A stretch of DNA of 59,766 bases, the filler included, from Sphacelaria rigidula (lineage: Eukaryota): the NCBI GenBank assembly GCA_964200075.2. It is 9 parts of 9 records of this genome, joined end to end, with 100 filler letters (N's around TTAATTAATTAA, not from the genome) between each part and the next. Parts side by side here need not be neighbours in the genome. Positions count along the whole stretch, not along the records: positions 6,653 to 13,204 come from CAXNAA020019390.1; 8 more parts are not named here. One strand, 5' to 3'. Under the pieces are notes generated by a model that worked only from the letters and a program-made list of their open reading frames with translations, was not told the DNA's origin and ran no database searches. The position numbers and the translations under genes were made by a program. Positions 1,621 through 58,599 of this stretch are shown here, piece by piece; positions within the stretch are counted from its first letter, which is position 1; each line of letters opens with the position of its first letter.

Positions 1621-4005
1621 ATTTTTAGTGTTGAACGAAAAAATCACTTGCTTTTAGTAAACCACGGGACAATCAACAGGCTGTGACACGGGATATGATT
1701 CATCTTGGCTCGGATGTTGTGTCAAACAACTACTTGATTTTAGTGTTGTGTGGCGATTAGAGCGAGGCAGTACATACCATGAGGCTCACGAACATGAACG
1801 GCGAGGGTTCTATACATGGTATGCCTGAATTAAGATAGAGCATGGGTGGTAAACACCGCTACTGCACCAGAATCTGGCAGTTCTACTCAATAGTGAAAGG
1901 GCCCCGGCGTCGAACGAAGAAGCCTGTTTGCCTGTGAACTGTAGCTTTCTCCCCGCCATTTACCGTAAAACGGCGCACAGTTGGGGTGCGGTCCAACACA
2001 CTTCCAAGTTCACTTAGCAGCATTTTCATCAGATAGAGAGCTTAGCTTTTGATTTAGAGTCAGCTTTGATACGTAGGAACACGTTGTTTTCATGTGTTCC
2101 TAATAGTGCATGAAACACTTACTACATTCCTGAATGTCAGGTGTACCGATGCCGATTCAACAGATCACCAACCCTACCGATTGAAGGGTTAATTCGAATG
2201 ACGTAGCGTTGTACGTGTACAGTGTAGATTAAGATTCGCGAGCTGTAAGACTAATGGTGAAGAACGATCCGTTTTGTTGAAATATCGATTAAAAGGGAAG
2301 GGGAATGGGGATATCAAACATTACCATCGAAAGATTCCTCTCATCATCCACACGCCGCTGTACATTCAGCAGGTTATGATTACACGTCGCACATAGTATC
2401 ACGCATTTCAAAAATGTTCTTCCCATTAACACATTAATGCGAATGCAGGGTAGTAGACCGTAGAGATGTCAAAGAATCGCATGGTGGCGTTTGCTTGTCT
2501 TCGGACTATATGTCCAACGACTAACTCTTCGGAATGTTGACCCATTGATCGTCAGGATTGGTAATCAGGGCCACTCAGCAACATTTCAAGTGAAAATGAT
2601 GCCGATTTTACAGCCGTCTACAAAGCTGGCCCTCGATCAGAAACTACACTCCCAATCTCACTTGTGATAATATTGCCGTGTTCTCTTTGGGCTTCGTCTA
2701 AGAGGGTTTTCTGTTTTTCGGGTGCGTTTTCTCGACATCCTGCCGCAAAAAAGTGAACAACTTTTTTCAGTACGCTGCTACCGTGCTGTGTGTAATACGT
2801 ATACACATCCTCTCATTGCCTCTGTGCAATGTATTTCAATCCTTCAAAACTTGACCAAAAAAGTGTACATAACATTTTCCGCCCATGGCACGCCGTGCGG
2901 TAGAGGGAAGGATTCGTTTCTGACCCACACCCGCAATGTTGGAGCTTGCCGGCCTGGGTGTTCCTCATTTCCGGTTAACTCGAACTTGTTTTCGACCTTG
3001 CGCCTCGATGTGGTAACGGTATTCAATGTTCGGAACAGCTGTGTGTTTAACCAATTCGAAACGAACATACCGCAAGAAGTTGACGCATGACTCGAGCAGT
3101 GTTGCAAGTTAGCCTCCGACAATCGTCCTACCATACATGTATTGTAGTACCGCGTGTTTTGTGATATCTACGGTCTAAATCCAACGGAGACTAACTCTGG
3201 GGTCCTAAACCCTTACGATATGCGAGACAATACAATGTATCAACTCTTCTCCACGGTATTTGAGGGGAGATTTGGGCCGTAGCCCGACGGATTCGTGATC
3301 GCACGCTCGTCGACTGGCTGGCGGAGCTACGCGGCTGTTAAGGGTATGCCATTGATGCAGGTAGTGGCAGGTGTGCTCCGACGCAGCAAAGATAGCTTCA
3401 ATATAGCTACAGTCAAATATGCGATTAATTGTGTAGAGATGTGTACAGGCGATCCTTTGGTGTCAAGAGATACGTTCTGGTCGCTGTTAATGCGGACCGC
3501 TGAGTCTGGCCAAAGAAACACAAAAATGTTGTCAACCGAAAACCGGGGTCGGTTGTCCGTCGCTGAAGTGCTTGGCAAGGTGGTCGTTGTTGTTATGGTG
3601 CGCGCTCGCTGATCTTCCGTAATACTGGGGAAGCTAGCTCTTGACGCAATCATTTATCAATCAGTTTGCCTAAGAACGGATTTGAGCCTTACAGACGTGC
3701 GAAATATACGAGTCGATCACTCAAGAGTTGATCATGTAGACGATACGATACTAGCGGATCATGACCTACACATAGATGATTGATTGTGGTGATCCCGTTG
3801 TTGGCAACATACGGACAGCTGCTGCCGCCGCTACGTCCAGCCTCGCTTTCTACAAGTGGCACCAAAAATAATTACCACGCTAAGTACAACAGGGAAAACT
3901 CCCCAGCTTGTGCGTTCCAACACAAGAGACAGGGGGAGCCCTACTAGCACACCTCCCTCCATCGTAGCTGCACACGTACACTCTTTCGCCATTACACGCA
4001 CTTAG

Positions 4006-4448
4006 AAGAGCCGATCATCGAAATTGAGGATGGAGCTTCCATTGAGGATGAGAACCCGGAGGATTGAAATCTTCGTATCTACACCAAATCTTCGAAATAC
4101 GGTTCCGTTTTATCACCTACTGGTAGCTATTGACAAGCACCCCATATCATACAAATTTGGATTTCGATGACCGAAATCTTGTGATCCTAGATGAAGAAAC
4201 AGTTATAGGGAATTTAGGCGATCTAATCGGATTACCCAAATTCCACAGAATTGTTTCTTGATCTAGGACCCCAACATTTCGGTCATCGAAATCCAAAATT
4301 GTAGGGCGTGTAGCACTTGTCAATAGCTACCAATAGGTGAAGGAATGGAACCATATTTCGAAGATTACGTGTGGATACGAAGATTTGAATCCTTCGGGTT
4401 CTCATCCTCGAAGGAAAGCTCCATCCTCAGTTTCCGTGATCGGCTGTT
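4006..4448. mobile_element. Foldback MITE (~440 bp hairpin), AACAG-end group
   Basis: The two halves are imperfect reverse complements along the whole length, centre near 4225. Flanks TTAG/TAAG are a 3/4 match to a 4-bp TSD. A second copy of the right end lies at 33261-33324. Confidence 0.85.
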
Positions 4449-6479
4449 TAAGGTGGAAGGGCGTCGCCAAACCGGAGCACCTTGCCCCCATGTCGCGCTA
4501 CTAACGTTTACATGTATTGCAAAAAAGTGAACATAAACTACAGCAAAAAACAATGGGAGTCGCACTACTGTTGCACTACACCGCGACAGAGAGCGAAGAT
4601 GCTTGCATACTTGACCGTATCATCTCTCTCTCTCTCCTTCGATACTAGTAAACTCACGACCTTCTACTATGGTTACTATTTCATTCATCCTAGGGAAATG
4701 AAGGTTTCCAACCGTAACATCTTCCCCGCATCACCCATCACGTGGCATTTTAAGGCTCGAAGACAGCTAGAAGAAAACACAACGACGCTCGACGCGGGGA
4801 GGGCCACCATCATGTGCACGATATATCCAAGCCATACCTCGCTGGGCGGTGCACTCGAAAGCGAGTGTGTACCAAAAGCGGGAAAAGGGCGTGCAACTAC
4901 AGCCCGGCCCTCTCTCTACCCCAACTACCGAAACCCATCAAAAGCATGGACAAACATGTCACATCGAGCACCTCGTCTAATGGATGCTGCCAGTTCGCAC
5001 ATGTTACCTCCCGATTTCTGGTCCTCATGTCCCAGACCGACCAAATTACTCTACCCTTTCTTCAAACGACCTGGGCCAGCCTAGAAGTGAATTAGAGGTC
5101 GAGAGTGGATTTCCAACCTCAGTTTTGAGGCTTGTGCTTCGAACTTTGGCACAGTGTGTCGCAGGGAGAAAATAAAGAGAATGCATTCTGCACGTTGAGG
5201 ATTTTTCCTTTTTCACAAGTTAAGGGCAACAACCAAGATATATTTATCACAAAAACGTCTTTACCTCGTGTAAAAAACAATCACGTGCTGCATGCATCCG
5301 CTTCATTTTTCCCTGCCATACGTAATACCGATTTTTAGATCACAACTCCCAAAGAGGAGGTGGGAATTCCACTTTTAGTGCATTTTGTGCAATACACTGT
5401 ATTTGAATTGAAATATCGGAACGACGTATTTCTTGCTAGCGACGCATTAGGTATAGGTGAGGGTATCGATCGTCTTCCCTCACTCCAAGCAATATCAACA
5501 CACCAAAAATCAGCCCCGCCCACTCTTCACCACATCGTGACCGGGTTTCCGTACGGACTGGGGCATCGAGATATCTCCTCCTTACGTCACGGAATTCGCT
5601 CTACATGACGTTCAATCAACAAAAACGCATGATCGGGTTGTTGGGTAGATGGGCATCTTCCCCCCGGTTGGACGATTAACGAGATGTGCGGATCACAACC
5701 TAATTCTTCTGCGTCGATGAGATATGGCTGTGACAGCTCCAGCCCGTCTTTAGGCTGGTCCAGCTCGTAAGCAAACACGGAAAGCGGATAGCTTGTGCCA
5801 TTCCTCACGGAAACTTAGGTGGCATTGCATCATTCACAACGTGAGAAAACTGACGACGTGTGTTAGGCACTTCCTCAGGTACCAAGGAAAAACCACAACA
5901 CGAAGAACTTCAACGATGCCTTGGATGTGATGAATGCACAGACCATAGCTCGCGCAGTCGACCACACTACTCATCCTGTGAAGGACCGAAAGCATGACCA
6001 ACTTCACAAGAAACCTTCACGTCTAGATGGCACTTCCTCGAGTTCCCAGTCAAATCAGAGATGAACGTACGCCTTCGTTCCGCTTTTCATGTACAGGACA
6101 AAAGTTCACTACTTAACGCCACTTGCCTTGTGCAACGTCACGAGCCCCCGACACCTCGGCGCCACTTCTCATTCTCGACACGAGAACCGAGGCAAACACG
6201 TTTATGCCACTCCTAATTTTCCCGGAGATCTACATTTTTCCTCACGCCCCCCCGAGTGCAAAAAGATGGAGGTAAACTCTTGACACCTGTTGGTCACTCT
6301 TCACGTACAGAATACAAGCTGAGGCCGGCACCTTGGTGTTATGTACGAAGCCAAACCCCTACACAGTCTTCGGGTGTGCCCCTATGTGCAAAACGCAAAC
6401 CGATTCATCACGCCTTGGTTCGCGCAATGCACTCTAGACGATCTTCTCATAGCGGAATCGCCATCTTCGAACAGCTCAT

Positions 6480-6552
6480 AACAGCAAATTGTGCGAATTG
6501 AGGTTTAACTTCGAGATGAGGTACAAGCCTAAAACAGTGCTTTCCCCACACT
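6480..6552 (+). mobile_element. Left end of an AACAG-type MITE, truncated by contig end
   Basis: AACAG-N14-TGAGGTTTAAC..TGAGGTACAAG. A near-identical reverse complement starts contig 9 (53216-53290). Confidence 0.75.
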
Positions 6553-6652
6553 NNNNNNNNNNNNNNNNNNNNNNNNNNNNNNNNNNNNNNNNNNNNTTAA
6601 TTAATTAANNNNNNNNNNNNNNNNNNNNNNNNNNNNNNNNNNNNNNNNNNNN
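6553..6652. other. Artificial contig linker
   Basis: 44N-TTAATTAATTAA-44N; the 12-mer gives stops in all six frames. Confidence 0.99.
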
Positions 6653-6908
6653 GGTAATCGCCGAGCGAGGACACACGAAGGACACGGGCGAGGAGCTTCC
6701 TCTCTGTCGTTGCTTCTCTCTCTGGTGATACTCGTGTACACCGCATTCGCTGGGTGCACCTAGCCCAAACTGCCCAACTCCTCCTCCTGCGGAGTTTTGG
6801 AGGGAAAGACTTCCCTTCTGTGTTACTGTTTGGTATTTTCCCAACGAAAGCGATATGCGAGTTGAACCTCATTTCAGAGATCAACCCCGAAAATTAGGAT
6901 CCGCTGTT
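6653..6908 (-). mobile_element. Right arm of an AACAG-type MITE, truncated by contig start
   Basis: Ends GAGTTGAACCTCATTTCAGAGATCAACCCCG..CTGTT, similar to the right end of 42805-43226. Confidence 0.65.
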
Positions 6909-7544
6909 AACTGATGATCCGGTATAAATCCAGCCGTGTTCGCAGGGTGGACATTAGGGAGGTAGAAAAACATCATGATTCATTGTGCCAAGAATAGAGA
7001 CAAAAACTTACACACAACCGTTCGAACAGGGACGGACGGCAGAAAAACAGAAAAACAAAACAATGACAACATAAGAAAACAAAGTTAAATCAACGAATAA
7101 AAGAACAAAACTACAGAACAGCAGTGTAGCCACCGAATTTGTCCACGAGATCACAAGCTCGTGTCACCCTTCGCATCTCTTTAAAGGCACAAGGTCTCTG
7201 ATTACTTCGTAGTCCATATTTTGACGCTAGTAACACTGAACGGTAAAACGGTACACAGCAACTCAAAGTAATGCATACTATGGTCGGAAGGCGTCCGTAT
7301 CAGATGCCCAGTACAAATGTACCGCGCAGATATCGGAACGGTTTCCAATGTGAAGACAACCACAGCAACAACAACAGTAATGGTTGGGTATGGTGTGGCG
7401 GTGCATGCTGCCGCGGCGCTGAACTTGCGCTTACATCGCGTGCGTATTATGATGGCGTATGCACACTCTTCTTGAACCTATGTATCATAACATGCGAGTA
7501 CCACATATATGCTAATCTCACATTCATCGTGGTACAAGTTGAGC

Positions 7545-7881
7545 GTGTGACGGTCGTGACGTTCATCCAGACGTCACAAACGTATGATAATGTGACGTGT
7601 GACGTATTTTATGACGTAACGCATAAAGTACGTTACACGTTACGGGAAACGTTTCAAAATACGTTACTGTGACGTATATAAAGAAATATGTCACGTCACG
7701 TCACATTTGTGACGTATTGAAAAATTAAACGTTATGTCACGTCACATTTGTTCACCGGTAGGTTGTGTTACGTCACATTCGTGACGTATTCGAAAAACAT
7801 ACGTTACCTTAGGTCGCACCCCTGTGACGTACGTTTCTGACGTGTAACGTACGTTTCTGACGTGTAACGTGAAGAGCCCTG
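7545..7881. mobile_element. hAT-like non-autonomous element remnant with dense TGACGT/GTCACGT subterminal repeats
   Basis: Many (G)TGACGT/ACGTCAC/ACGTTAC motifs in both orientations. Right end GTGAAGAGCCCTG reads CAGGGCTCTTCAC in reverse complement and matches TAGGGCTCTTCAC at 28014. Left end not found. Confidence 0.55.
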
Positions 7882-7983
7882 ATATGTTTTCCTCATAACC
7901 TGCTGCAAAAAAAAGGGGAAAAAACGAACCGGAAGAAACGGCCTAAGAAAGGTCCTTATGCCAGAAATTATGCTATCATAATA

Positions 7984-8191
7984 GAGGTATCTCGAACTCG
8001 GCTCCCGGCATCCTGATTTATTCGCTGGCTCTGAGTTGTGTGCTTTTTTTTCAAGTGAAAGTGATCGAGATTCATGGGAGGACCTGACTTGGCGGTCAAA
8101 GGTCTCATCGTCTGATGAATCGCCATCACTTTCACTTGAAAAAATATAACAAAACAAACCAGGATACCGGGAGGCGAGTTTGAGATACCTC
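7984..8191. mobile_element. MITE with ~30-bp TIRs (GAGGTATCTC...GAGATACCTC)
   Basis: GAGGTATCTCGAACTCGGCTCCCGGCATCCTG versus reverse complement GAGGTATCTCAAACTCGCCTCCCGGTATCCTG; flanked by TA on both sides. Confidence 0.75.
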
Positions 8192-8657
8192 TAATGAGTA
8201 GAAGCCTAAACCCCCCACTGTTTCGTGCAGACGCCAGACAAGTAATTCCTAATTAGCCTCATTGGTTGTTCTGGAGGCTTGGTCCCTAAAGGGTTAATCA
8301 TAGGACACCCCTGTTCCTAACCATATCTCGCCTAAGCGTAGGAATACTCTTCCCACATGTTTTTGCGCCAGGCACCCCCCGACACACACCATGCGTGCGA
8401 CCGGTTGACATCAGAGAAGCTCGAATACAGGATCTCAGCCCCCATTTTGGTCACGCGAGCAAGAGTTAAGTCACCCGCACAAGGTATCTTTTTTCACTTC
8501 GCATACCAAGAACGTCCACACGAGTGTTTGATCGCTCATACATCTATTCCCGCAACTGGGATGTGGCAGACTGTCTGTTGTCCTTGTTTCAGTGTCATTC
8601 CTTTTCCATATTGTTATGGCGGCAGTTGTGTGGAAGAATATGCATCTTCCAGTAGGT

Positions 8658-9268
8658 TGTGAAGGGGTTAGGCCTGGTGCATGGTAGACACGCTTGAGTA
8701 GTAAGGCAGGAGGGCCAGACATAAGGCCTAACACACCAGCTGAGGGGCAAAGAACAGTTCTACAGCGTACGAGGCTGACGTTCTGTGCTCTGGATATCAA
8801 ATCAGTCTCACGCGCAGGTAATGACAGTATGACTTCTTGATTGCTCAATTCCTTAATCCCTTAAGTACTTCTCAGTGCTCAATCTCTCTCGCGGAGTCAA
8901 TCAGTCTCACCGGAGATGTAAGAGTTTCCTCGTCGGGATGAAGCGGTGTGTGACCGAGGGCGATCTCATCGACAATCATCCCTCGCTATATACAAGTTCA
9001 TACTCGTATCTGACCGATTATGAACAGACCTGCAATCTTGGAATGACCCTGAAATATCCAATCTCGACATTGCTAGATCTGTCAACGGGTCTGAGGCGGC
9101 ATGATAACAGGCTACTATTCTCCCTCATGATGCTAACCCACCCACACGAACCTTTATTACAGCTGCGAGGATTTATCCCCAAAAGCAGCGAGAACTCAGG
9201 TTTTTCTTTACTCGAAAAGTCATGAGCGGGTAATGAGGCACACCAAAGGAAACACTCCCGTACCCACA
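8658..9268 (-). repeat. Putative 3' LTR of the contig-2 Ty3/gypsy element
   Basis: On the minus strand it follows the pol end and a purine-rich tract (GAGGTGTGGGAG), begins TGTG and ends TTCACA. No second LTR is available to confirm it. Confidence 0.4.
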
Positions 9269-9829
9269 CTCCCACACCTCAAAAATTAAAGGAAGCATAT
9301 ACTGCTTCGAGGAGCAGAAAAACTGCTTCCAAACGCGGGAGAACAAACTGCTTCTGCGTGCTAGCGATCAACGAAGAAGCACATATTGCTTCGGCGTCCT
9401 AGCAAAACGAAGGGGGAAACCCGGGAGGTACAACAGAGACCAGAGCTTCTACCTGGGGGATTCCAAAGAAAAACGGCAAGATCCGTAGCGGCCGACGCAT
9501 ATTGGTCGGAAGCAAGGGAACCAAATTGTGAAATCGGTGATACAACGAGATCGAGCGTCAGCCAAAACGAAAACAAAAAGGGGGGAGTACTGGAGCTTCA
9601 GTAGTCGTAGATGGCTGGTGGCTCCTAGTAGAGTCCGAGCGTAGTCCGATGTAAGTAGTCCTGTTGTGTATGTCATAGAGTCGGGTCCTAGCGAAGAAGG
9701 GAGGGCAAAATACTACGGAAGGGAAGAAAGGTCGCAGTGAAGGGGCGTGTTTCAAAGCGGTGCGTGGACGTCATGGGTGTGATCGATGTTGCGCTGGATA
9801 CCACGGCGAAGTCCTTTTGATTTGAGTCT

Positions 9830-12800
9830 CTAAAGGCACCAGGATCCGCGTGGGGCAGATGGGCTAGTGGTGTATCGTGCTGGCCGAAGCATGAGCTGGA
9901 TGGGTCCAGGATCATCGATGAAGCGCACGATGTATGTGTCGGCAGAAACCAGGTTAGCTGAGTGGGTCTGACCCAACCACCAGAGGTTGTCGCTGCCTTT
10001 GAACCAAAGGTAGCTTACCTTTGGGTAGTATTCGCTGGCTTGCGAAGAACTTCGCCTTACAAATCTTGGTGGGTACAAGTTCGTAGCCATCAGCGACAAA
10101 GCGTACTCCTTGATCGCGGTGGTGTTCGCGGGCTGCTGCACCACGACACATGTTGCGATATTTCTTGTTGTGGGCAAGATGCTGGTGTTGGGATTGTGTC
10201 CAGTACAGGAGGATTGCACGGCGGTGCAATTGAAGGCCGGATTCGCGTTCCCAAGACGCTCTCCGAAGACCTTGCCAGTGTGTCTTATACATGACAGCAG
10301 TTTTGCCACCTCGATCACGAGTGATTTAGTGGCCGGAGATGGTGAACACGGTCAGGCGGAGGGGCTTTTCCGTCACGTCGTCCGTAGTAACATGATAGGG
10401 CGGGGGCTTGGTCAAGTAGCTGTTGAGAACATACTGAATAAATCCGGCAGGCGAGTACTTGGGCATGTAGCTAGTAGCGTGCGGGTTCCTGCAGAGTTTT
10501 CATCTGTGCACAGAGACGCGGGTTTTGGTGTCCGTGCCATGGAGGTCGTGAGGCAGGCCGAGATAGAGCAGTTTGTCGCCAACGGATTTATCATCCGGGG
10601 ATGATGACGATCGTTCGACTGAGAGGATCTTGAATGGTCCTGCCCAATTGAGGGACAATTTATCGTCAAATTGTTTCGTTGGCGGCCTTGCTGGTGCCTT
10701 GACGGATAGTCGACAAACTGTTGTAGATCCAAACCCACTCGCGAACTTTCCAGTTGGGGCGTTTGTGCATGAGATTGTAGAGAGCGGTGTTAGATCTCTC
10801 GAGGCGCAAGGCGCTAATAGCATGTTTTTCGCGCACGAGGGTAAACGCTTTGCGTTGTCGTGAATGTGCCAGCTCGTGATAAGATATCTGATCCTGATCC
10901 AATCCTTGGTGACCATCGAACGTGTGTCGCTCAAACACGGTGATGGGCAGCCGAGAGTAGCATCCAAGATGGAGTTCGTTCGGGGAAATGCCTGTGGTGG
11001 CGTTCACCAGGTTGTTGTAGTACAGTATGATGTGCGAGAGGTGTAGGTCCCAGTCATTTTGGCGGTCATTGACAACCACAGAGAGCACCTGAGCCATGGT
11101 GTGATTTACTCTTTCGGTACCACCGTTACTATTAGGGTGGTAGGCGCTCGTGGCAATTTTGCGGATGCCCAGAAGCTTGTAAAGCTCATCAGAGAGACAT
11201 AAGGTGGTCCGGAGCGTTGGGGAGTCCCACAGAGATGACGGGCCAGCATACTGTCTGTCGTGAAGTTTCTCGAGCTTGGAAATTTGTAGCATTGCCGAAT
11301 CCAGAAGCAGGTGGAAATTTCCATACCAAGCCACCAGTAGAAGCGTTCCAGGAGCGCTAAGGTGCGAGTGACGCCAGGGTGACATGACAAGTCCGTGTGG
11401 CAGCCTTTCATGACCCAGGGGCGCATTAATAATGCGACAAATATGCGCGTTGGTTCGTCATCGAGTAGTCGTGAGTGGTGTCCCCTGGTTGAGACGGAAA
11501 TTGTGCCCGTCAAAGGCGTGGTGCAACGCACGAATAGTTGTACGCCTTCATCCGCGGTAAAAACGGTGCCTTTACGTACGAGGTCGTGTACGTCAGAGAT
11601 ATCTAGGGGTGGCAGTGTGCCGACCGGGGCCAGAATGGCGAATGGAAAAGGGACAGGGCAGGCAAGCTGTAAGTACCGGATGGCTGCTCGACATAAAGGT
11701 TCCGCGTTCTGTTCGCGGGCACAATCTCGGTGAGAGTAGCTGGCGAGAAACTCGCGTAGTTGACCTTCCGCTGGAGAGCCGACCACCAAACATGTTGGGG
11801 TTGGCAGCGGGGGAATAGGCGACGGGGCAGAAATGCCGACGTCAATATCTGCCCCGGGAGCAGGAGCTGAGTTCTCGACTCTATGCTCGGGAGCGGTAGC
11901 TGTAGGCGGCATTTACAACTTCTTCGCGGCGCGTGATGGATGTTGCAGTATTTTGCGCGGAGCGTTGCTTACTGGTCCGTTGGACCGGCGCTGCATGGCT
12001 CGTGGGATTTGTATATCTATGTTATCGGTGGCGGCGGGGCACTTGGGGGTGTGGTTCGGGCGGCAGACCGGGAGCGCGTGTTATCGGAGATTAGGTGGAT
12101 GACCGAAGGTGTCTCCGTGAAAAGCTTCGCGCGAGTACCGAAAGCGCGGAAATCGATAAAATCGGAGGTAGCGGGTTTTAACCCACCCAAACGACGTCAT
12201 ATGGTAAAGGGCGAAGACCGCCCATGTGCATACCAGTCTCTGGATACTGTAGGTCAAGGGCATAAACGGGCGTTGAAAAACGTACAGGGTAGATCCCAGG
12301 TTCATCGAGTTTCGTTAAACAGCAAGCCGGGCTGAAATCTGCGGCCGTAGGCGGCAGGGGTAATCCGGAAAGAAGGTCAGCGTTTCCGTTGGTTTTGCCT
12401 GGACGGTGCTTTATGGTATACTGGTACGCTGTTGGAAATTCCAACCATCGTTGTACACGCGGGTTGTGTTCGCCAACCTTGGCGAGTTGTTCGAGTGCCC
12501 CATGATCCGTGTAGATCTCAAATGGCACGTGAAACAAAACATGTCGGAGGCGCTTAATGGCCCCGGTGATTACTCCGCCGTCCAATTCTAGCGGGCTCCA
12601 GTTGGCCTCGTTGGGCAGGGTGGCCCGGCTGATGTAGAGGATGGATCGAATGGAGCCGTCAACCTGTGGTTGATTCAAACCTCCTCCAAATCCGTCTGTG
12701 CTGGCGTCAGTGTGTAGTTGGGAGTGATGCTACGGTAGGGGTACAGAAATATTTTCTAAGGTTACAATTCTTACGAGCCCTCTATCTCATGCAAAACACG

Positions 12801-13140
12801 ACCTATGAAAATATGTGAAAGTACGACAAGATTACTTTTCCAATATGCGGGAGATATCCCGAATAAATTTGTAAACGGGTAATCCTGATCCATATTTTCG
12901 TGCATCTAGAATCGTTAGGAGCCCCTGAACTAGACATGATTTCGCGAAAAAAGTGCACCCCTACCGTAGCATTGCTCTTGGAAAAGGCGAGAGCCATCTT
13001 GTACTGCCTCCCCATCAGGGAAATAGAATACCAGTTTTTCGGTAAGCGTTTTCAGCAATTCGCGGGTGATATTCTCCACATCGATGGTGAAGGTAAACAC
13101 GGCTCCTTTCTTGAGTAACTCAGTAAGGGGAGTCATCCTT
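9830..13140 (-). pseudogene. Decayed Ty3/gypsy (chromovirus-type) pol: RT end, RNase H, integrase, chromodomain, Tudor-like tail
   Basis: PLTELLKKG (RT/connection); QLHTDAS, YISRATL, IYTDHGAL, RVQRW (RNase H); H..H.G..RT..LL..FYWW (integrase Zn finger); TSAYHPNSNGGTERVNHT (rve core); W.GPF; YKTHWQGL..ASWE (chromodomain). Multiple frameshifts and stops. Confidence 0.93.
12722..12977. mobile_element. Sola-like MITE inserted in RNase H, 4-bp TSD TTGG
   Basis: TIRs GAGTGATGCTACGGTAGGGGT / ACCCCTACCGTAGCATTGCTC with TTGG at 12718-12721 and 12978-12981. Removing the element and one TSD restores SRLFQLHTDAS. Confidence 0.88.
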
Positions 13141-13204
13141 CGATAGGGGGGGGGTATTTGGTTGCACGAAAAAAGAGGCTCATAAGTGTGTCAGACATCC
13201 TTCC

Positions 13205-13304
13205 NNNNNNNNNNNNNNNNNNNNNNNNNNNNNNNNNNNNNNNNNNNNTTAATTAATTAANNNNNNNNNNNNNNNNNNNNNNNNNNNNNNNNNNNNNNNN
13301 NNNN
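13205..13304. other. Artificial contig linker
   Basis: 44N-TTAATTAATTAA-44N. Confidence 0.99.
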
Positions 13305-14912: not shown

Positions 14913-15105
14913 CTGGTGCTTGTCGAGTACTGCGGTGTACGTTGAGGCTGTCAGCATAGTATACACGGAATAGAAAAAAAACTCGAAATACCACAGAGGA
15001 TACCGCAATCGCATGCATATCGTCAACTGATCATGTATTCGAGGGTAACACGGAAGAATGTACTGTGCTTTTCATTGAAACCCATGATTGTGATCGCAAA
15101 CCAAC

Positions 15106-18100
15106 CTTGGGCTTCGATGCTTATCAGACCGCTGTTTGGCAACTAAACCGGCTCCACCCGTTTCCTCCACGGACGCAGCTTCTCCTTCCTTACGTCGTCT
15201 TTTGTGGTCGCTCTTTCGTCTTTCGCTCACGGCAATAACGTCGTTGTTTTCGCTCTCAGCAGCTGCAGCGACGTCGTCGACCTTGTCGTTATCGAGATCT
15301 GCGTCCGGAGCGACTGCTACTTGTTGTTCGACAGCGGGGACTTCTGGAACTGGCTCAGGAGGCGCCGGAGGGGGGGGCTCTGATCTGATCTCCTTATGCC
15401 AATCGCTGTTGTCTCGCCGCGGACGAAAACTCTCCGCCACGAACGTTATATACGCAGCCCCACCTTCGGTATCGCCGTCACTGCCGCCGACTTCGACAGT
15501 ATCTACCCTGGGACCTGCAGCCCCTTTGGCGACGCCTGAAAACGATACATCCACCCGCTCTCTAAGCTCGGACGCTTTTTTCGGGAACGACAACCCTTGG
15601 ATGCCGACTTCCTTCGACTGGGATGATACACCGAAGAGAATGGTGGCCCTATCAACGAAATCCGGTCGATCAATCCTTGATCCCTCCGAGTCATCACAGG
15701 GTATATCTCCATCCACTCCGTCGAGATGACCCAGCTTGACTTTCATGCGCTCACGAGAATCGCGACGAACCCTGGAAAGACCGGACCCAGGGTCCAACGG
15801 CGACTCACCAGGAACATCCGTTTCTCTCCCGATAGGATTGTCCAGTTCCGTACTGTGAGGTGGTGTGGTATGGGGGTGAATGGAATCAGCGTCGTCGCCG
15901 CTATCCCTGTCATTCTCGTCGGAAGACGCGCTGGGATGAGACATGCTACCCGATGACGATTCCGAGCTCATGTCATCGGTCGCTTCGGCCGTGGAGTGAA
16001 GGGAACCGCGAGAACCAAATGCCGGCGGGGGGGTTGACAGTTGAAGATAGAGGAGAGTTTGCGAATCACTGGGGTCTTCTTCTTCTTTTGTCGCCCGCAG
16101 ACTGTCGCGTATGGCCCCAATCCAGTTCACCCATTGGCTGGGCTGCGACAGCACGTAGCCCGGTAACCTCTCGAACACGTCGTTCATTGTTACTTCTAGC
16201 AACACCAGCCGCTGCAAGTATTCGTCGTGGCAAAATCTCTCCGCAGCCACTTTCTGCACGTGACTGAGGTTGGACCTATCTTCCTTTGCCCTGTGCCACA
16301 GCTCACTCAAACGGGTAAAAAAAGGGTCTGGGTTTACCTCCGCGTGTTTCGTGTCATCGGCGATCTCACACCTAGTTGCTTCGCCATTGCTCTCCTTGTA
16401 TTGTTGGCTCATAGCCACTGCGTTGAGTGATGAAGTTGATGTCGATTGCGCCCTCGCGAACTCGATTGCCGTCACTGTGGCTTCATTGTGCGTCCAGTTA
16501 GAAGTGTCGAAGCCCAACTTCCAGCAGTGGGGAGACAAGGTCGCTCGGCCTTTCATTTGGACGTCTCTTCCGTCACTATCTGACAAATTACTTTCCGAAC
16601 TGGAGACCTTTGCCGCTGACAAGTCGGCGTTGGAGTCTTCAAAACCGAGCCCAGGGTGGTCGCCAAGCCACGTAGCCCCTACGCTACGCACCTGTGCCAG
16701 TCCTTGCTCGACGCCCACAAGCTGCTCTTGGCTTTCCTTGATATCTCCGAGAACACCAGCAATATGGTGGTGAGGACGTGCCGTCGCTCTCTGTATGCCC
16801 GGACCACCTGTGCTCATGTCAGCACCGGTACCCATGCCAAGGCTTGGAACGGCCATGGAAAACAGAAACGGCAGGTCAAGCTGGCTCGGGTTTGAGTGCT
16901 TTCGTCTGTGTCGATTTGCGAGAAGCACGCTGCACGTATCCCACCACCCTCGAGATGGAAACTCGTCGGGCCTAGCCCCAGCCATGACCGCGACTGGGAT
17001 AATCCAGGCACAGTTACGGGACACTCTTGTTAAAAAGCTCTCGGTAAGGGCGCCCAGGATGCTGCGCTCGACCGTTTCTTCCTCCTGCTGTTCCCGTGTT
17101 CCGTCGTTCTCCCGTACCGCACAAGTAGCTCGGCGTAGAACACCGTGAATGAGAGCGCGGACGGCGGGCGAGGCGGGGCAGTAGAGGGCAGGATCCAAAC
17201 CCCATGCGTGCAGCATCTCTCCCATTCGAGCCAGTGTTCGAACGACTGATTGAGACACTCGGTGTCCCATCCGTCTTTCCGATCTCATCTCCTTGACCAG
17301 TCCTGCCTGCGCTGCTCGACCGCACGTGTGTACCACCTGCTGTACGCTCTGCAGGGTGCTCTTGTACGCAAACATTGTCTCGATTAGATGGTTGACTAGC
17401 CTGTTCTGGTCGCGCTCGATCTCGTCTCCGTCTCCGGGTTTGAAAGATTCTCCGGGCAGCATCCCGGACTCTTTCCGCGAGCTAGAACCCACGGCGGGAT
17501 CGAAACACGACGGTCGAGAGGAAAGTACTGCCAGTACTGCTTCATGAGCAGCACCAAGCTGCTCGGAATAAAAAAACGCTTGTCGCTGGGCCTTCTCCAC
17601 TGCGGCGCCAGGATCAATTGCTTCCGCTCCCCCTGCAACAGCAGAGTGAGACGCACCGATGATGTGTTGCTGTAGTCCAAGACCCAGCGTCATGGGCGTG
17701 CTCAACCCGGGCAACTGGCCAAGCCCAAGCCCGGCCACAATCACCCCGGGGATTGGTGTATCTTCCTGCCCCTGGGACGTACTGCTTGAACTCGAGTCCC
17801 CATCGTCGCGGTCACCGACGTCCGCGTTTTGACCTGGCATACTAGACAGCGGATCGGTGTTGCAAGCGCTGACTGCCGGTGGGCTGTCGAAGCAGTCCAC
17901 GCCTCCGAAACGAATCACTTGGAGTCGCGCGAGAGCATCTGGGACGTCCTCGAGAAACACCAAGGGCGTCGCGCCGCTGAATGCCGAACTCTTGCTTTGA
18001 TTCGCATCATGCGCAGAGGGTATCCGCACACTCGAAAATTGTAGAGAACCTGCAAACAAGAACACCCGAAAGCCGGGTTTGACCGATACGATGGTAGCAT

Positions 18101-18372
18101 CTGGCCCGCTCCCGACCACTGCAACTCCATACGACTCGTTTGCGGCGGCGATGTCCGGCATGGTCTCAGCGCTGCAGCTTGCCCGGTCTCCGACGGGCCG
18201 AACCTCGGATCCAAGGAAAAGAGCGAGCTGAGGGTGAACGCCTCCTTCTGTAGAACCCACTACAAGCACTTCGCCTCTGTTTGCAGACGAAGATATTACT
18301 TCCAGGCTTACTGCAGACGCAGGCACCGGGACGACGATTCTTGCTTGTCCCGGGTAAACGCACCGTAGCCAT
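15106..18372 (-). CDS. 3267-bp exon of divergent dynein heavy chain-like gene (AAA5, strut/buttress region, large insertions)
   Basis: Overlaps nearly all of the 1084-aa ORF; TAG acceptor at 18373-18375 and AG|GTTGGT donor. Segments resemble dynein AAA5 (GEVLVV..GGVHPQLALFL; VKPGFRVFL; LQVIRF) and downstream motifs (EIERDQNRLVNHL; LDPALY; LTESFLTRVSR; F..LP....P..W..W). Confidence 0.75.
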
Positions 18373-18615
18373 CTAGATCAAGAGCAGACACAGACACGAG
18401 ATCAAAGTGGCACGAAGTTTTCTCATTGAGAAAAAAAAGGCATGGATAACGTCGGGCGCTGACCAGGGAATATTAGCCAATCACATCTCCCGAGTTGGTG
18501 GTTAGCTGTCGCACAGGATCGCCATGCATCCATGGCGATTTTGGTATGCATTCATGTCGGCACGAAGTGTTTGAAAAAAAATGCTGACGTCGGCTGCGGT
18601 TACCCGTGCGCTTAC

Positions 18616-19856: not shown

Positions 19857-19956
19857 NNNNNNNNNNNNNNNNNNNNNNNNNNNNNNNNNNNNNNNNNNNN
19901 TTAATTAATTAANNNNNNNNNNNNNNNNNNNNNNNNNNNNNNNNNNNNNNNNNNNN
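19857..19956. other. Artificial contig linker
   Basis: 44N-TTAATTAATTAA-44N. Confidence 0.99.
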
Positions 19957-39912: not shown

Positions 39913-40480
39913 TCCCCATTTCCATTTGAACTCTGCCGGATGTTTCTTATCTTCGTTACAGACGAGTACCGCGCATTTGTTGACGTTCGCTGTCACTCCC
40001 TATTTCCTAGTGTATTCTAGCGCCTCGTCTGTGTCTGTAATCCTTCCGGTGTCCCTGAAATCCCCACAAAATCATCCGCGAACATCAATCCCAATACCAT
40101 ATCTTCACCAACCTTGACCCCTTGCTTTGCTGCTTCTATTGCTATCATCAACTTGTTGACAAATACCTTGAACAAAGTGGGTGATAGCCTACATCCTTGT
40201 GCAACTCCTTGTAAGATATAAAAATATATCGATGTTTCTCCGTCTAGCATCATGACACTTTTGGCATATTCTGTCATCTTCTTCACCATTCTCCACATCT
40301 TTCCTCTGATCCCANNNNNNNNNNTTCTTCCACAACCATTTCTCCATACTGTGTCATAAGCCTTTTGCACCTCCAGAAAGAAACAGTACGTTGTCTGTCC
40401 GGTGTCTTTCCTACCCTGAATAATCATGCTTACTGTGTACACATGGTCTACGCAATTACGGTTTGGTCTATAGCTTACTT
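39913..40480 (-). pseudogene. LINE reverse transcriptase fragment, same family as 46565-49620
   Basis: RPNRNCVDH, QKAYDTVWR, GVAQGC.LSPTLF, FADDFV; very similar to ~47570-48135. Confidence 0.9.
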
Positions 40481-40536
40481 GCCACTGAGGTCCTTGATGT
40501 CCCTGAGTAGGATATCGACGTGTAACTGTAAGCACA

Positions 40537-42440
40537 CACTACACACGCGGTCATTCGGCTACCTCGTAGAGGAATTTTCAAACGCCATCCTCGCTTCCGT
40601 CCGTTTTAAAATCCCCCCTAGAGGATGCTCCGTCTCGAAAGGGATGCGTGGTCAATGGTCAAATGACTAAGGCAAGCAACAAATGAGTACGCCCCCCCCC
40701 CCCAGAGGATCTTGGGTATTCGTAATCCTCTCGAGGATTTTCACTGTTGGAGCCCTCGAAGGTCTGTGTTGATATTAAAATTCCCTGGATTGTTTTTGGA
40801 GGCACAAGTGCTATGGATATCTGGAATTTTCACAGCTGCTCAAAATAAGTCCTGATTCCAAATTATTGGAATCAGGTCGAAATGATTTATATCGAACAGC
40901 AGAGGCTGTGCAAATCCCATATACAGTACACTCGCAAGTGGAATTTGTACACCAGAAACTGTTCGAAACAAATCCTCATTTTGCCCACCAATACCTTGAA
41001 TTGGGCAAAAAGAGACTCTTATTTGCGAGCAGCTTCTGCTGTTCAAGTCCCACATACGGCACGGTATCGGTGGATGAGAGTCGAGAGACAGCAGAAGTCG
41101 TGGAGAACTCATCCTCTTGCCCCCCATTTCATATCTTGAGCAAGCGGATCGAAGTCTTCAAACGCCTCGACTGGTTTCAAATCCCATACACCGATTGCGA
41201 ATACATGTACACACAGCCATGCTATCAGCTTTAGCTTGTGGTTATGATGTACCCCTATGAGTGAACGTCATATATTTAAACATACAAGCTTGATAACCCC
41301 GTAGTCCCGTGTTCACCATTCGAACACCAAAGTGAAGCATTTTTTCGAGTGAACACGCGAGCAATTATGATCGCGGTCTATTCTGTACGTTGATGGTGAT
41401 ATGACCATCACAACAATAAGCATGGTTTGATGCTGTACTGAACAGTACAATACCGTGCAGGACAGTACCATATCGTGCTGATATGCGTGCTGTGCAATAT
41501 ACTGCAGAGTTAGCGCGGTATATGCGCCACGTGTGGCTAAAAAAAGTAGATGCCTGTAACGTTGGGTGCATGGGGGTGTTATATACTGTCAGCTACTGAG
41601 TATACACGATGCTCGTTCTTGCAGCGTGCTCACCGCCGCAGTCAGTAGGACGTGAAAGGGAAGCGGACAAAGTAGAGCACAGACAGCGCAGGACTATATG
41701 TATGTCTTCTGCTCACAGTGCAACATGAAAAGGACTTGAACAGTGTGCGCAGCTTTTTCTGCCTGCACTGTCCATGGGTGTGTATGCAGTGAACCGCCGG
41801 TTGTTGCTCGCACCATACCCCGCTGCTCAAGTTCAAACTTCCACCAACAAGACATACATCATGCTCAACTACTACAGTGTGCATCTACATCCCTGTGCCC
41901 AACTCGTGCTCTTTGCTGCAGGGTTTTTGTGGTGGTATTATGGCTGGGAATAAGTGATGTCGGGTTTGCAATTCAATCTGTGAACGGCGGGTGATACATA
42001 TATTGTTTCTGGCGTGATGGTCCCAAAGGTCCCCTGGAAACATTTAGAACACAAGTGCACAAGTGCTAATGTACAAGCTGGAGGATAGTGCACGGCTATG
42101 TCTTCCGGAGTCGGAACAAATGCCTTAAAGGCTATAGTCGGTCCCTCCGCCAGAGGAACGATGCTCATATTTCCCTCTGCCGTTCACGTTTCCGTCTAAG
42201 GGACGTTCACGAAAACCACGTGCTCCAGAGCACCATATTTTGGTACTGTGGAGGGAGTCAGACCTCAGAAGTCACTGAAGCATCATATGCCCTCGAGAGG
42301 ATTCGTTTCATGACCGGAACCGAGTATGAAATGCCCTCTAGAGGATACTTTTATCCTCCCGAGGGTCACTTTACCCTCGAGAGATGAAAATCGCGATAGA
42401 GGATTTTGAAAGGGGTAGCCGAATGGCCGCGTGTGTAGTG
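40537..42440. mobile_element. Non-autonomous CACTA/EnSpm-type element with nested repeats
   Basis: 26-bp TIRs CACTACACACGCGG(T/C)CATTCGGCTAC; AGAGGAT/ATCCTC subterminal repeats at both ends. The 3-bp flanks (ACA/ATG) do not match. Confidence 0.7.
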
Positions 42441-43699: not shown

Positions 43700-46344
43700 C
43701 GACATGGCTCAAGCGGCGGCAGCGCCGCTGGTGTTAGGTGAGCCACTACAGCCGCCAAAGTATGGAGAAGTATGGACAGAAGAGACATCACGCGTCTTTT
43801 CGCAAAATATCTTGAATACATAGAGCGGTGGAGTCTAGCGAATTCTGAAGGAGTTATTCGGCATGAAAGAGTTAGCATAGGGCAACTCATCCCTGTCTAC
43901 ATTCACCGCTGCTCCGAAGACATATACAAGGACGGTCGGGCTATGAACCCCGACGAATTGCTTGATGCTGTGAAGCAGCATGCCGGGTATACTACAACCG
44001 GTGGAAAGCATGACGCTACGCGAGCTGCAGCAGACCTGCGTAGGGTACTCATAATGAAGCAAAGCGATGGAAAGTCCGTGAAGGATCGTGCTACTATGAT
44101 GGTTAGTTCAGATATGGAACGGTGTTTTGCAGAGAACTTGATGGTGCAAGCCATGTGCCGTGCGGAGAACAGGAGTTGGTAACCTGGCCCGGCCGAGTCG
44201 GTTTCCATAGCTTTGGTGGATGGGATTCCGCCCCCGGAACTCGAGGCGTATGTTAGAAGTGTACTAACGTATGTTGACGGCTGGAAAAAGAAACCGACGG
44301 TGGTGTTCAATTCATATTTGAGGCGGCCGACCAGTGGAAATTCATTGAAGCACATGGCCGGCGCGACTCTGCAACACGTGCAGGTGGCATGCGCCGCAAC
44401 CAGCAACAGCAACATAAACAGCAGCCGTCTTCGCGAGAGTCGTCCACTCGCGCGTATTACAGCTGCGGTGACACCGGACATATCATCAAGAACTTCCCCA
44501 AGCCTCGCGCTCAAGGCGAGACACAGGGCAATGCACGAGATTCATCAGGATCTCGGGGCGGTCGTCACGGTTGACGGGGCCGTGCCAATCAGGGACACGG
44601 GCGCGGCGGCCGCGGTAGCAAGCAATCGGCGGCGGATAGTGGTTCCTCCGCTGTTGTTTCTTCCGCTATGTCACCAGGTAGTGACTCTGGATCTTATGGT
44701 TCGTCCGTAGCGTAGCGAACAGTGTACGTGGGAAATGCAAATATCTCGGTGGGGAGTGTTGGAGCGAATAGCTCGCAACCCCTCGGCCAGGCACGATCCG
44801 TGTCTGGTGCATTCCCTACGGCTGCGACGGCTGTAACAGCGCCGTCTGCACATACGGCGACTTGGTCTGGTTGGACCGACGATTCGCAGTTATCGATGCC
44901 AAGTGATGGAGGGCAGCCCTGGCGTCAGGTGACTCTTAGCCCAGAACAGGGTTCTTCGGCAGGCGTGGTACCTGTAGATCGCAAGGGTGAATGCTTACGC
45001 GCAGATTTAGCCTTATCTGGTTCTGTAGGTTCGTTCATGGCCCTCGTTATTCTGGATTCTGGGTCCGCGCTCACGTCGATCGGTGTGGGGTTGCTAGAAC
45101 AAGTGTCTTTGCAGCTTGGCAGCGCTCAGCTTCAGATTCCGTTCGAAAACGGACCGCAAGCGGGGCAGACCGCCACGGGTGCTCCCGTGACGGTTACACA
45201 CAAAGCAGTGCCAATTACTGTTAGCATGCGTACGCCGTGGGGAGCTGTGGAGTTGCAGTTTATTACTTTCGCTGTCATGCGCGGTAGGGACGACGTGGTT
45301 CTGTTCGGGATGGCGACAATGAAGGGGCTTGGGATTGATCTATATCCGCTGGCGTTGGAGAAGTTACGTCCGCGTGCTGTGCCGGTGCAAACCGGCGTGG
45401 AAAGCCCTAGTTACCTTGCTGCAAGGCGTGTGATCGTATCCATACGGTCATTTCAGAGCGCCAATGAGGAGAAGGCTCCTGCTGATGAAGGGGTAGAGCG
45501 CTTGGTCGATCGGGGGCCTGATATATTCATGGACCGAGCTGGGGAGAGAGGTGCACGAGAACGTGCGCTTGAAGAGAGTGTGCGGCAGGCCAAGCAAAAG
45601 GGCCTAAGCGCCGATGGTGCACATTGTCTGCGCGATATTTTGGCTCGTCGCGTAGATAAATTTTGCCGTACGCTGCGTGGTGATCCGCCAGCGCGCGTTG
45701 AGCCGATGAGGGTACAGCTTAAGCCCCGGGCAAATGCGGTGAAGGCCAAGCCCAGGCGGTACAATCTGGTGAAGACCGGGTGACTTGCCTCATGCATGGC
45801 AGCTTTGGTGGCATTTGGTTTAGTGGTGAGGAACATCCACGCTGAATGGGCGAGTCCGGCAATGGCGGTGTCGAAAACGGACACATTCCGTTTGGTCAGC
45901 GACTATCAGGCGGGGAACGCGCAAGTGGAACAGTCTCCGGGGGTGATGCCAGGCCAAGAAGACATTCGGGAGTTTCTGGGAGCCCAATGCTTCGGTAAGT
46001 TGGACCTGCTACAGGGGCACTGGCAGATGCCTCTGGCGCCGGAGGCTCAGGAAACCTTCACGATCGTCACGCCGGACGGTTTGTTTACGCCTACTCGTAC
46101 CCCGCAGGGTGTGTTGAACGCCACGGCTTATTTCCAAGGTGTGCTGACTGACATTTTGCGAGGTCTAGATTGTAAAGTGCGTGTGGATGACGTTCTCTCT
46201 ATTGCTGAAAGCGAAGAGGCACTGTTAGCTTTGCTTGACGAAATGCTTGACCGCTTCGAGAGTGTTGGTCTGTTCGTCGCTGCGCAAAAGTGTACTTTTT
46301 TGCACGCGAAATGGTTTGGTGTGGTAAGGTGTACTCCATGTTAG
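43700..46344 (+). pseudogene. Decayed Ty3/gypsy gag-protease-RT
   Basis: Eroded zinc knuckle (YYSCGDTGHIIKNFP) with RGG tract; protease VILDSGS; RT motifs WASPA, FRLVSDY, KLDLLQGHWQ, PQGVLNA, VDD, KCTF. Stops and frameshifts present. Confidence 0.92.
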
Positions 46345-58294: not shown

Positions 58295-58542
58295 TGTGAC
58301 GCCAGCCAGAGGGAGGACTGGTGTATCGTTGCTGTTGAGGGACTCCCCAGTCTTACTGGCCTCAGTTTCAGTTGTCAGCCTTTACAACATCCTCATGATC
58401 ATGGAGTGCCGTTCCGAGGCACCCACCTAGACACGCCAGGGTATCAACCTAGTGTCGCCGGCCATTATCCAGATCATCACTACCAACGGTCATTATACAG
58501 ATCATCACTACCAACTCAACATAACGGCGTAATTTCGTCACA
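58295..58542 (-). repeat. 3' LTR (248 bp) of a chromovirus
   Basis: TGTGACG...CGTCACA inverted termini, preceded on the minus strand by a G-run PPT and the integrase end. Confidence 0.75.
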
Positions 58543-58599
58543 GCACCCCCAAAGCGCATTGGACGAAACTCGATCAACAAGCTTGACACATAAAAAATG

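Follow-up and report, generated by a model that had tools for sequence, protein, structure and literature searches.

Here, a Tudor-type domain is described at the extreme C-terminus of a retrotransposon integrase, downstream of a chromodomain. The element that carries it, a Ty3/gypsy retrotransposon, lies on the minus strand of a stretch of Sphacelaria rigidula DNA of 59,766 bases (the window), within the piece at 6653-13204. The reading that we consider probable is that this is the dead 3' half of a very high-copy algal element whose pol polyprotein ends, in order, in integrase, chromodomain, Tudor-type barrel and a disordered peptide, with the chromodomain and the barrel together tethering the integrase to marked nucleosomes. 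A preliminary description, made from the window alone, had read the region beyond the chromodomain (referred to below as the tail) as a Royal-family Tudor/PWWP-like module and had proposed that it forms, with the chromodomain, a pair of chromatin readers.

In working copies the tail is part of the pol open reading frame (ORF), a point that the preliminary description had named as a check. Two proteins, P0038 (799 aa) and P0027 (595 aa), combine the zinc finger, catalytic core, chromodomain-like part and tail within one ORF; both run unbroken across the point at which the window copy is interrupted (LPVGAYFWYKG and LPKGAHVWYKG, respectively) and continue for about 30 residues beyond GSWCLQ, and P0038 matches the Ty3 polyprotein 7q5b at 1.4e-30. 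Furthermore, a scan of contigs with a profile of 31 close tail sequences (alignment A1) yielded one locus, L001, on a marine metagenome contig of 9,110 bases. Its pol is an uninterrupted ORF of 1,636 aa that runs from reverse transcriptase (RT) through RNase H, integrase and chromodomain to the tail, ending ...GSWCLQVHLASAFTRGVQRNVDESRGAAVDR, with Pfam matches to RVT_1 (6e-26), RT_RNaseH (4.3e-29), H2C2 (2.4e-11) and rve (9.2e-06, below its cut-off). Together, the Pfam matches of the window and L001 give the order typical of Ty3/gypsy pol, RT-RNase H-integrase with H2C2 and rve.

The tail is widespread as well as intact. A 66-aa tail query on its own (54 candidates scored) matched 51 proteins at E <= 0.1, at 47-77% identity and with a best value of 5.7e-28, well beyond what chance would give. 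When the A1 profile was run against 1.84 billion proteins, 723 cluster representatives were returned at E <= 0.001, of which 460 reach <= 1e-10 and 94 reach <= 1e-30; the best 150 of the 723 are mostly fragments. Two further alignments were used, A2 with 81 sequences and A3 with 20 sequences that include the chromodomain. The end of the chromodomain and the barrel fall in one matched stretch in 22 of 198 collected proteins. A search from the other direction, with the integrase-chromodomain part of P0038 as the query, listed 120 proteins, 118 of them new. The barrel was found in 39 of the 118, always 0-22 residues from the C-terminus, with a partial match in another 20 and none in the remaining 59, many of which are fragments that stop earlier. 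Seventeen of these integrase relatives, with 51-84% identity to P0038, bear the name 'unnamed protein product [Ectocarpus sp. CCAP 1310/34]'; the tail carriers with that name are P0224 (1,398 aa, with a NADAR domain) and P0212.

The predicted structure of the tail supports a Tudor-type SH3-like barrel of the Royal family, set in a domain of about 110 residues that includes two helices and a strand; we regard the fold call as good and the scores behind it as middling. P0012, a tail-only protein of 129 residues, was modelled with AlphaFold2 on A2 at a mean predicted local distance difference test (pLDDT) of 81.2 and a predicted template modelling score (pTM) of 0.71, with 59 residues at pLDDT 90 or above and disorder (pLDDT <50) only beyond about residue 111. 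The model consists of a helix (2-13), a strand (23-25), a second helix (28-34) and strands at 45-49, 55-63, 70-74, 81-83 and 101-106. Foldseek against the Protein Data Bank (PDB) placed PHF1 and PHF19 Tudor domains in all of the first ranks (E 0.012-0.02, probability 1.00, target-normalised TM score 0.57-0.61), aligned over 43-44 columns at a root-mean-square deviation (rmsd) of 1.8-2.1 A and 30-32% identity, and followed by MTF2, Drosophila Pcl, PHF20, RDM15, Spindlin, SGF29 and Tudor-SN. The SH3-like/Tudor barrel that had been anticipated thus heads the structure search, albeit at sub-threshold scores.

Sequence profiles and a second structural comparison point the same way. The A2 profile against all PDB sequences gave 13 matches at E <= 10, namely three PHF19 Tudor entries (0.014-0.024), six PHF1 Tudor entries (0.66-1.2) and four ASAP1 SH3 domains, and strands 1-3 align in register with PHF19 (family line 'vlpkgahfwykgddglWwLGkisasttedgvylvrfLDdP'). 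The A3 profile matched the PHF19 Tudor for the barrel (0.058-0.075) and the MPP8 chromodomain for the upstream module (0.11-0.14), the latter in register over YKxxWxG..xSWE. VIA-align, run against 48,161 representative chains, scored 21 of them at Z >= 5 but reached Z >= 8 with none; the list is headed by SH3-like domains of TraI (Z 6.5, 5.9 and 5.8) and the extended Tudor domains of Papi (6.0), TDRD1 (5.6) and Qin (5.6), and PHF19 follows with Z 5.3, 56 of its 57 residues being aligned at an rmsd of 2.3 A and 25% identity. Judged by title, Tudor, Agenet, PWWP, MBT, chromo-barrel, SAWADEE and Spindlin domains account for 42 of the 50 rows, the exceptions being ranks 1, 3, 4, 34, 35, 36, 48 and 49. 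A member-by-member Pfam scan of the 81 sequences gave sub-threshold matches, all to SH3-like or Royal families: SH3_VIII-1_N in 16, Agenet in 8 (best E 0.0018), Tudor_2 in 4 (E 0.017) and PWWP in 2 (E 0.12). The barrel of the preliminary description therefore stands, and Tudor fits it better than PWWP. The call of a Tudor-like fold is made because profile, Foldseek and VIA-align agree, as three partly independent lines, and not because of any single score. Two other candidates were set aside. The protein atlas gave only leads below 0.8 for the tail (Tudor family 0.76; a structure row for an integrase/chromo cluster at TM 0.48), and an origin of the tail as a duplicate of the integrase's own SH3-like domain was rejected at an hhalign probability of 0.09%, in what is a weak test with a single sequence as template.

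Three features are particular to the barrel: the helical extension at its N-terminus, a long insert (RYTT...GSWCLQ) that precedes the last strand, and a characteristic DDPGP turn. In the PHF19 alignment W56 faces the second Y of GLYYLG and F74 faces the F of VTFED. This Y and F of PHF19, with the W of CRW, make up three of the four residues of its aromatic cage; the fourth falls beyond the end of the alignment. Further conserved aromatic residues (W47, Y48, W55, Y70, Y90 and W101) lie nearby in the sequence, together with an acidic pair (D76/D77), and judging from the alignment these aromatics could complete a cage.

The tail is conserved about as well as the chromodomain. P0038 and the pol of L001 share 87% of residues in the core and 78% in the integrase C-terminal domain; the corresponding identities are 75% for the chromodomain, 73% for the barrel, 62% for the helical linker and 61% for the C-terminal extension. 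Constraint on the tail had been named as a check. In a rough Nei-Gojobori comparison of the window with L001, the ratio of nonsynonymous to synonymous rates (dN/dS) is 0.15 across the barrel and extension, as compared with 0.18 in the core and 0.21 in RNase H; since dS is saturated (2.1-2.8 or not computable), these show only the same order of constraint. Within A2 (P0012 numbering) the most conserved positions include W55 (96%), W56 (91%), L57 (90%), G58 (94%), P78 (91%), P80 (91%), Y90 (91%), W101 (91%) and C102 (94%), with D76/D77 at 88-89% and Y48, Y70 and F74 at 84-85%. The peptide that follows the barrel (..RGxQRNVDxSRG..) is likewise conserved, is predicted to be disordered and could be a short binding motif.

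Against this background, the window copy is a non-functional relic, with at least seven frame changes, in-frame stops and half of its integrase core missing. It is truncated at 13204 by the end of the window piece (spacer 13205-13304), and the L001 polyprotein aligns to it at about 50% identity in eight pieces, in frames -2, -1, -3, -2, -3, -1, -2 and -3 (tblastn). Its features, from the 5' to the 3' end of the element, are as follows.

12969..13142, minus strand: remnant of the RT C-terminal/connection region (47% identical by tblastn to residues 427-484 of the L001 polyprotein).
12208..12720, minus strand: RNase H domain (Pfam RT_RNaseH E 9.2e-21 on ORF 12178-12729; 51% identical to L001 pol 481-648).
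11283..11783, minus strand: integrase N-terminal extension and H2C2 zinc-binding domain (Pfam Integrase_H2C2 E 2.8e-09 on ORF 11106-11912; 47% identical to L001 pol 889-1055).
10669..11196, minus strand: what is left of the integrase catalytic core, namely its C-terminal half (tblastn high-scoring segment pairs, HSPs; weak Pfam rve_3 match).
10503..10740, minus strand: integrase C-terminal SH3-like domain with the GPF motif, ..EWVWIYN.. / ..KLSLNWAGPFKIL.. (ORF translations, aligned to L001 pol 1293-1550 and to P0038).
10200..10361, minus strand: chromodomain-like module, LRLTVFTISGH, stop, ITRDRGGKTAVMYKTHWQGLRRASWERESGLQLHRRAILLYW (translation; in-frame TAA at 10326-10328).
10026..10199, minus strand: linker and then, from about 10151, the N-terminal extension of the tail, ..MCRGAAAREHHRDQGVRFVADGYELVPTK.. 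(predicted helix 2-13, strand 23-25 and helix 28-34 of the P0012 model, pLDDT 72-93; conserved in relatives).
9830..10025, minus strand: Tudor-like five-strand barrel, LPKG/SYLWFKGSDNLWWLGQT..YIVRFIDDPGPIQLML..RYTT..GSWCL (translation, profile, model and fold searches).
9755..9829, minus strand: conserved C-terminal extension, RLKSKGLRRGIQRNIDHTHDVHAPL, predicted to be disordered (in the barrel frame; matches ..QRSKSHGLRRGLQRNVDRTHDVHAPS of P0002, and L001 pol up to residue 1629).
9752..9754, minus strand: natural pol stop, TGA (from the sequence; relatives end at the same place and the depth of look-alike contigs drops sharply below about 9755).

In the catalytic core, one HSP ends at pol 1085 (window 11192) and the next resumes at pol 1157 (window 11196), and residues 1086-1156 of the L001 pol, which include the first two acidic residues of the core, are not covered by any tblastn HSP in the window. 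From the integrase C-terminal domain to the natural stop the lesions amount to three in-frame stops (TGA, TAA and TAG) and one extra base. The C-terminal domain is interrupted by a frame change and is followed by the TGA at 10500-10502, where P0038 has a Cys. Beyond this the same frame, -2, reads KLCRNPH...LRLTVFTISGH[TAA]ITRDRGGKTAVMYKTHWQGLRRASWERESGLQLHRRAILLYW and then a further 61 residues to ...ILPKG, so that the passage of the minus-strand integrase through GPF into a chromodomain-like segment is present as previously read. The frame is then broken by one surplus base, which had been noted near 10020 and is located within 10016-10022, where relatives read LPKGAYLWYKG without a break. 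Frame -3 takes over with SYLWFKGSDNLWWLGQT...YIVRFIDDPGPIQLMLRPARYTT...GSWCL[TAG], again as had been described, the whole stretch being SYLWFKGSDNLWWLGQTHSANLVSADTYIVRFIDDPGPIQLMLRPARYTTSPSAPRGSWCL[TAG]. The start and sequence of the tail given by the preliminary description were correct; its end was not, as the TAG at 9830-9832 is Gln in P0002, P0038 and most aligned relatives, and about 25 more conserved residues follow before the TGA at 9752-9754.

Among other copies of the element in the same organism, most have Gln codons in place of the TAA and the TAG, and many lack the extra base. Seven public sequencing runs, labelled with a coded organism, 'algae metagenome' or 'marine metagenome', contain part of the stretch, and contigs from four runs (X1-X4), which come from at most three samples in two studies and may include the window's own sample and so are not independent of the window copy, were compared with window 9700-10520 at 80% likeness or more. 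Each run yielded between 1,304 and 1,461 look-alike contig pieces, so that the element family is very abundant. Position 9832 is G (giving CAG, Gln, in place of TAG) in 33, 39, 31 and 25 contigs of the four runs, and in X1 G accounts for 23,584 of 24,276 depth units. Position 10328 is G (CAA, Gln, in place of TAA) in 41, 39, 40 and 27 contigs. One base is absent at 10016, 10020 or 10022 in 2-9 contigs per run, and at 10020 in 604 of 854 depth units of X2. The TAA, the TAG and the extra base are therefore peculiar to the window copy or shared by only a minority. Differences between the window and the contigs are skewed, with 33-35 A>G and 15-17 T>C per run against 22-24 G>A and 7-12 C>T in reverse. 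This excess of A or T in the window where contigs have G or C is the GC-to-AT drift expected of a decaying copy, and the TAA and TAG are both changes of this kind.

As a mechanism, the chromodomain and the Tudor-like barrel would tether the complex of integrase and complementary DNA to nucleosomes that carry particular histone marks, and such tethering would bias where new copies insert, as has been reported for the chromodomains of chromoviruses. Two readers in tandem might act additively, with a higher avidity, or might recognise a combination of marks. A putative histone-mark ligand is suggested by the predicted fold and by the position of the domain, given that both modules lie at the very C-terminus of the integrase, where long terminal repeat (LTR) elements carry their targeting domains. 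In Ectocarpus, H3K9 and H3K27 methylation are absent, and H3K79me2 and H4K20me3 are associated with repeats, according to the accessible portion of PMC12477816. If the host resembles Ectocarpus the usual ligand of a chromodomain would be missing, and a Tudor domain that reads another mark would, speculatively, make sense. A more specific version of the tethering model is tentative and, on balance, rather unlikely: a true two-reader module in which a chromodomain with a reduced cage and a PHF1/PHF19-like Tudor read a combination of marks, the Tudor having been recruited for H3K79me2 or H4K20me3 so that the element homes to silenced repeat islands without an HP1-type signal, and in which the integrase-free proteins that carry the barrel (P0123, P0101 and P0104) represent the source host gene or a domesticated copy.

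Several observations weigh against a pair of histone readers. The Foldseek search of the PDB gave zero matches at E <= 0.001, the best VIA-align score belongs to the SH3-like domain of TraI, and Z values under 8 are common according to the tool. No family among Tudor, Tudor_2, Agenet, PWWP and Chromo was matched at the gathering or conventional threshold by any of the 81 members in Pfam. The upstream module is itself a sub-threshold Chromo match in P0038 (E 0.014, 15.8 bits against a cut-off of 25.1), with 2 of the 81 members matching and a best E of 0.005, and a model of chromodomain plus tail made with the 31 close sequences is unreliable at pLDDT 47.9, although its secondary structure (strands followed by helices at 75-90) would suit a chromodomain. 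The aromatic cage is incomplete in the sole residue-level alignment, where the W of PHF19 'CRW' faces G50. Lastly, five of the Ectocarpus-named proteins (P0237, P0239, P0264, P0307 and P0317) stop 3-18 residues past the chromodomain with endings that are alike (..YWSREACQSKQ.. or ..YWSREVCQSKQ..), and may be a tail-less subfamily or an artefact of gene models; P0209, which does not bear the Ectocarpus name, likewise stops soon past the chromodomain.

Some of these points suit a different role for the same fold, in which the SH3-like barrel would bind nucleic acid or a host or element protein, as a second DNA-binding domain of the intasome or a dock for a host factor. The incomplete cage is in keeping with this, as are the best VIA-align rows, which are to the relaxosome protein TraI, and the presence among the other rows of KOW, the Tudor-like domains of PcrA/UvrD and a PWWP bound to single-stranded DNA; Rous sarcoma virus integrase appears at Foldseek ranks 37 and 47, and the commonest sub-threshold Pfam match is to myosin SH3 (16 of 81). 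We nevertheless think such a role doubtful: the histone-reading Tudors of PHF1 and PHF19 are the closest relatives by identity (25-32%), by profile and by Foldseek probability, the top conserved residues are aromatic or acidic (W55, W56, F74, D76, D77, Y90 and W101) and not basic, and the tail has no similarity detectable by hhalign to the element's own integrase C-terminal domain. An accessory domain that acts outside integration, perhaps as a separately released pol product that counteracts host silencing by occupying a mark or helps to assemble the particle, is improbable. Its attraction lies in the conserved disordered peptide after the barrel and in the integrase-free proteins, since their existence means that the barrel can work outside an integrase. 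In P0123 (828 aa) and P0101 (612 aa) the barrel ends the protein after long coiled-coil and Ser/Arg-rich regions, and P0104 (626 aa) combines an unrelated N-terminus with a chromodomain and the barrel. In all 39 integrase-linked cases, however, the barrel follows the chromodomain and closes the pol polyprotein, which is the usual position of a targeting domain, whereas the integrase-free proteins are few and are unannotated gene calls on short contigs. They may belong to the host or to other elements, or may be faulty calls; for P0123, a search with the N-terminal part matched only the protein itself among 8000 candidates scored. The notion that the tail has no function, as a chance open frame or 3' untranslated read-through in decayed copies, took its appeal from the window copy, in which a frameshift and two stops fall in this very region. 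It is refuted, and carries almost no weight with us, given the intact 1636-aa ORF and dozens of in-frame relatives, conservation equal to that of the chromodomain, the confident fold prediction and the other copies without the window's lesions. Tethering of the integrase by the chromodomain and barrel remains the probable reading.

Two observations on the barrel-bearing proteins are recorded separately. The N-terminal parts of P0123 and P0101 share a weak mutual similarity, and in P0071 the barrel lies behind WSC and TIMP domains in what is probably a chimeric gene call.

The window is made up of pieces, each about 6,552 bases long, with N44-TTAATTAATTAA-N44 spacers between them (6553-6652, 13205-13304, 19857-19956 etc., one per 6652 bases), and features on separate pieces are therefore not genomic neighbours. 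A second integrase C-terminus at 58449-59387 (minus strand), with a sub-threshold Chromo match (Pfam E 0.0078), belongs to a different Gypsy family and lacks the Tudor-like tail. The preliminary description had contrasted it with the present element as ending shortly after its chromodomain, and the stop does come about 80 residues later; the two are no neighbours, as this element lies at about 58450-59390 on another piece. No second copy of the tail was found within the window by tblastn with the tail query. No LTR pair was found for the element in the window or in L001, both copies being truncated at the 5' side, which would hide any pair. A Pfam scan of 20 long window ORFs recognised no host genes. 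Four ORFs with RVT_1 matches belong to other retroelements, at 40020-40538 (minus), 45784-46341 (plus), 47385-48398 (minus) and 52360-52917 (minus), with E values from 1.5e-08 to 4.2e-28, and direct repeats at 39915-40486 and 47570-48148, 83-89% alike, are two copies of one RVT_1 retroelement on different pieces. An open frame of 1,101 aa at 15075-18377 (minus) is rich in Ser, Asp and Gly, matches no Pfam family and has a protein-atlas match of only 0.75, which is unusable.

By architecture the lineage is a NADAR-bearing brown-algal Gypsy lineage and appears to correspond to lineage IV of Ectocarpus. Upstream of pol, L001 has an ORF of 538 aa (1382-2998) with a NADAR domain (Pfam E 1.8e-52), and PF08719 (NADAR) is precomputed on P0224, P0257, P0259, P0261, P0286 and P0293. 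NADAR is thus found in relatives, the window copy being truncated at 13204, before the region in question. Around the protease, L001 uses three reading frames (ORFs 1382-2998, 3030-3455 and 3293-8203), although its coverage is about 2.5x and the shifts may be errors; upstream of the NADAR-bearing ORF, at 886-1272, a 78-nt unit is repeated in four to five tandem copies. The run labels and the Ectocarpus-named relatives point to a brown alga, or something close to one, as the probable host. The preliminary description had called the element a chromovirus, and this probably does not hold in the strict phylogenetic sense: its architecture is that of the NADAR lineage, which PMC12477816 places outside the chromoviruses. 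In the part of that paper available, the chromodomain-bearing lineages of Ectocarpus are described as unrelated to chromoviruses, and the node that joins lineage IV with the oomycete element Chronos has low support.

An integrase fused to a single chromatin reader is the classic route to the choice of insertion site. If the present interpretation is true, the chromodomain-Tudor tandem would be the first two-reader targeting module of an integrase found in the searchable full-text literature, on a very abundant algal element. It would leave the general understanding of LTR elements unchanged. The tandem offers a handle on the marks of 'safe' chromatin in brown algae, a group with unusual repressive chromatin, and the tail itself, as a compact and confidently foldable domain of about 110 residues, is suited to binding and structural work.

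Among known systems, the histone readers closest to the barrel are the H3K36me3-reading Tudors of the Polycomb-like proteins PHF1, PHF19 and MTF2 (PDB 4hcz, 6wau and 5xfr), which it resembles in strand order, in the G..LxxLGKI...VxF.D pattern and at rmsd 1.8-2.3 A and 25-32% identity. It differs from them in that the scores are sub-threshold, a cage W of PHF19 faces a glycine, and the tail has its helical extension, a long beta4-beta5 insert (RYTT..GSWCLQ) and the DDPGP motif. Among transposable elements, chromoviruses and Chronos (PMC5348765, from its accessible portion) likewise have a chromatin-reader domain at the integrase C-terminus, with a presumed role in the choice of insertion site, but carry one reader as opposed to the two described here. 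Chromodomains have been reported to direct integration to heterochromatin (Gao et al. 2008, as cited in the available parts of PMC12477816 and 10.1101/2021.11.30.470311). Fusions of readers with transposons across 172 genomes involve mainly Chromo and PHD, and 92% of reader genes have one reader domain, as far as the accessible text of 10.1101/2021.11.30.470311 goes.

The nearest comparisons are with Ectocarpus itself. The first Tudor domain on any transposable element was claimed in 2025 in this genus, to judge from the portion of PMC12477816 at hand; the element concerned, Gypsy-10 (Gypsy-10_Ec32), is likewise a brown-algal Ty3/gypsy whose pol ends in a Tudor-superfamily domain. By that description it belongs to a separate lineage without NADAR in which the Tudor replaces the chromodomain, whereas here the barrel follows the chromodomain in the NADAR lineage. 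Lineage IV (e.g. Gypsy-12_Ec32, PMC12477816) shares with the present elements a YbiA-type NADAR domain N-terminal of pol and a putative chromodomain after the integrase, and its likeness extends to the Ectocarpus-named proteins related to P0038, two of which have the tail. The difference, compared by description, is that the accessible part of the paper reports only the C-terminal chromodomain for lineage IV and mentions no further barrel. No description of an integrase with a chromodomain and then a Tudor-type domain was found in the full-text literature, a coverage that stops short of subscription journals. The novelty claimed in the preliminary description accordingly holds for the tandem and not for the elements, which belong to a catalogued brown-algal Gypsy lineage and are therefore not a new kind of element; the part that appears new is the union of a chromodomain and a Tudor-type barrel on one integrase.

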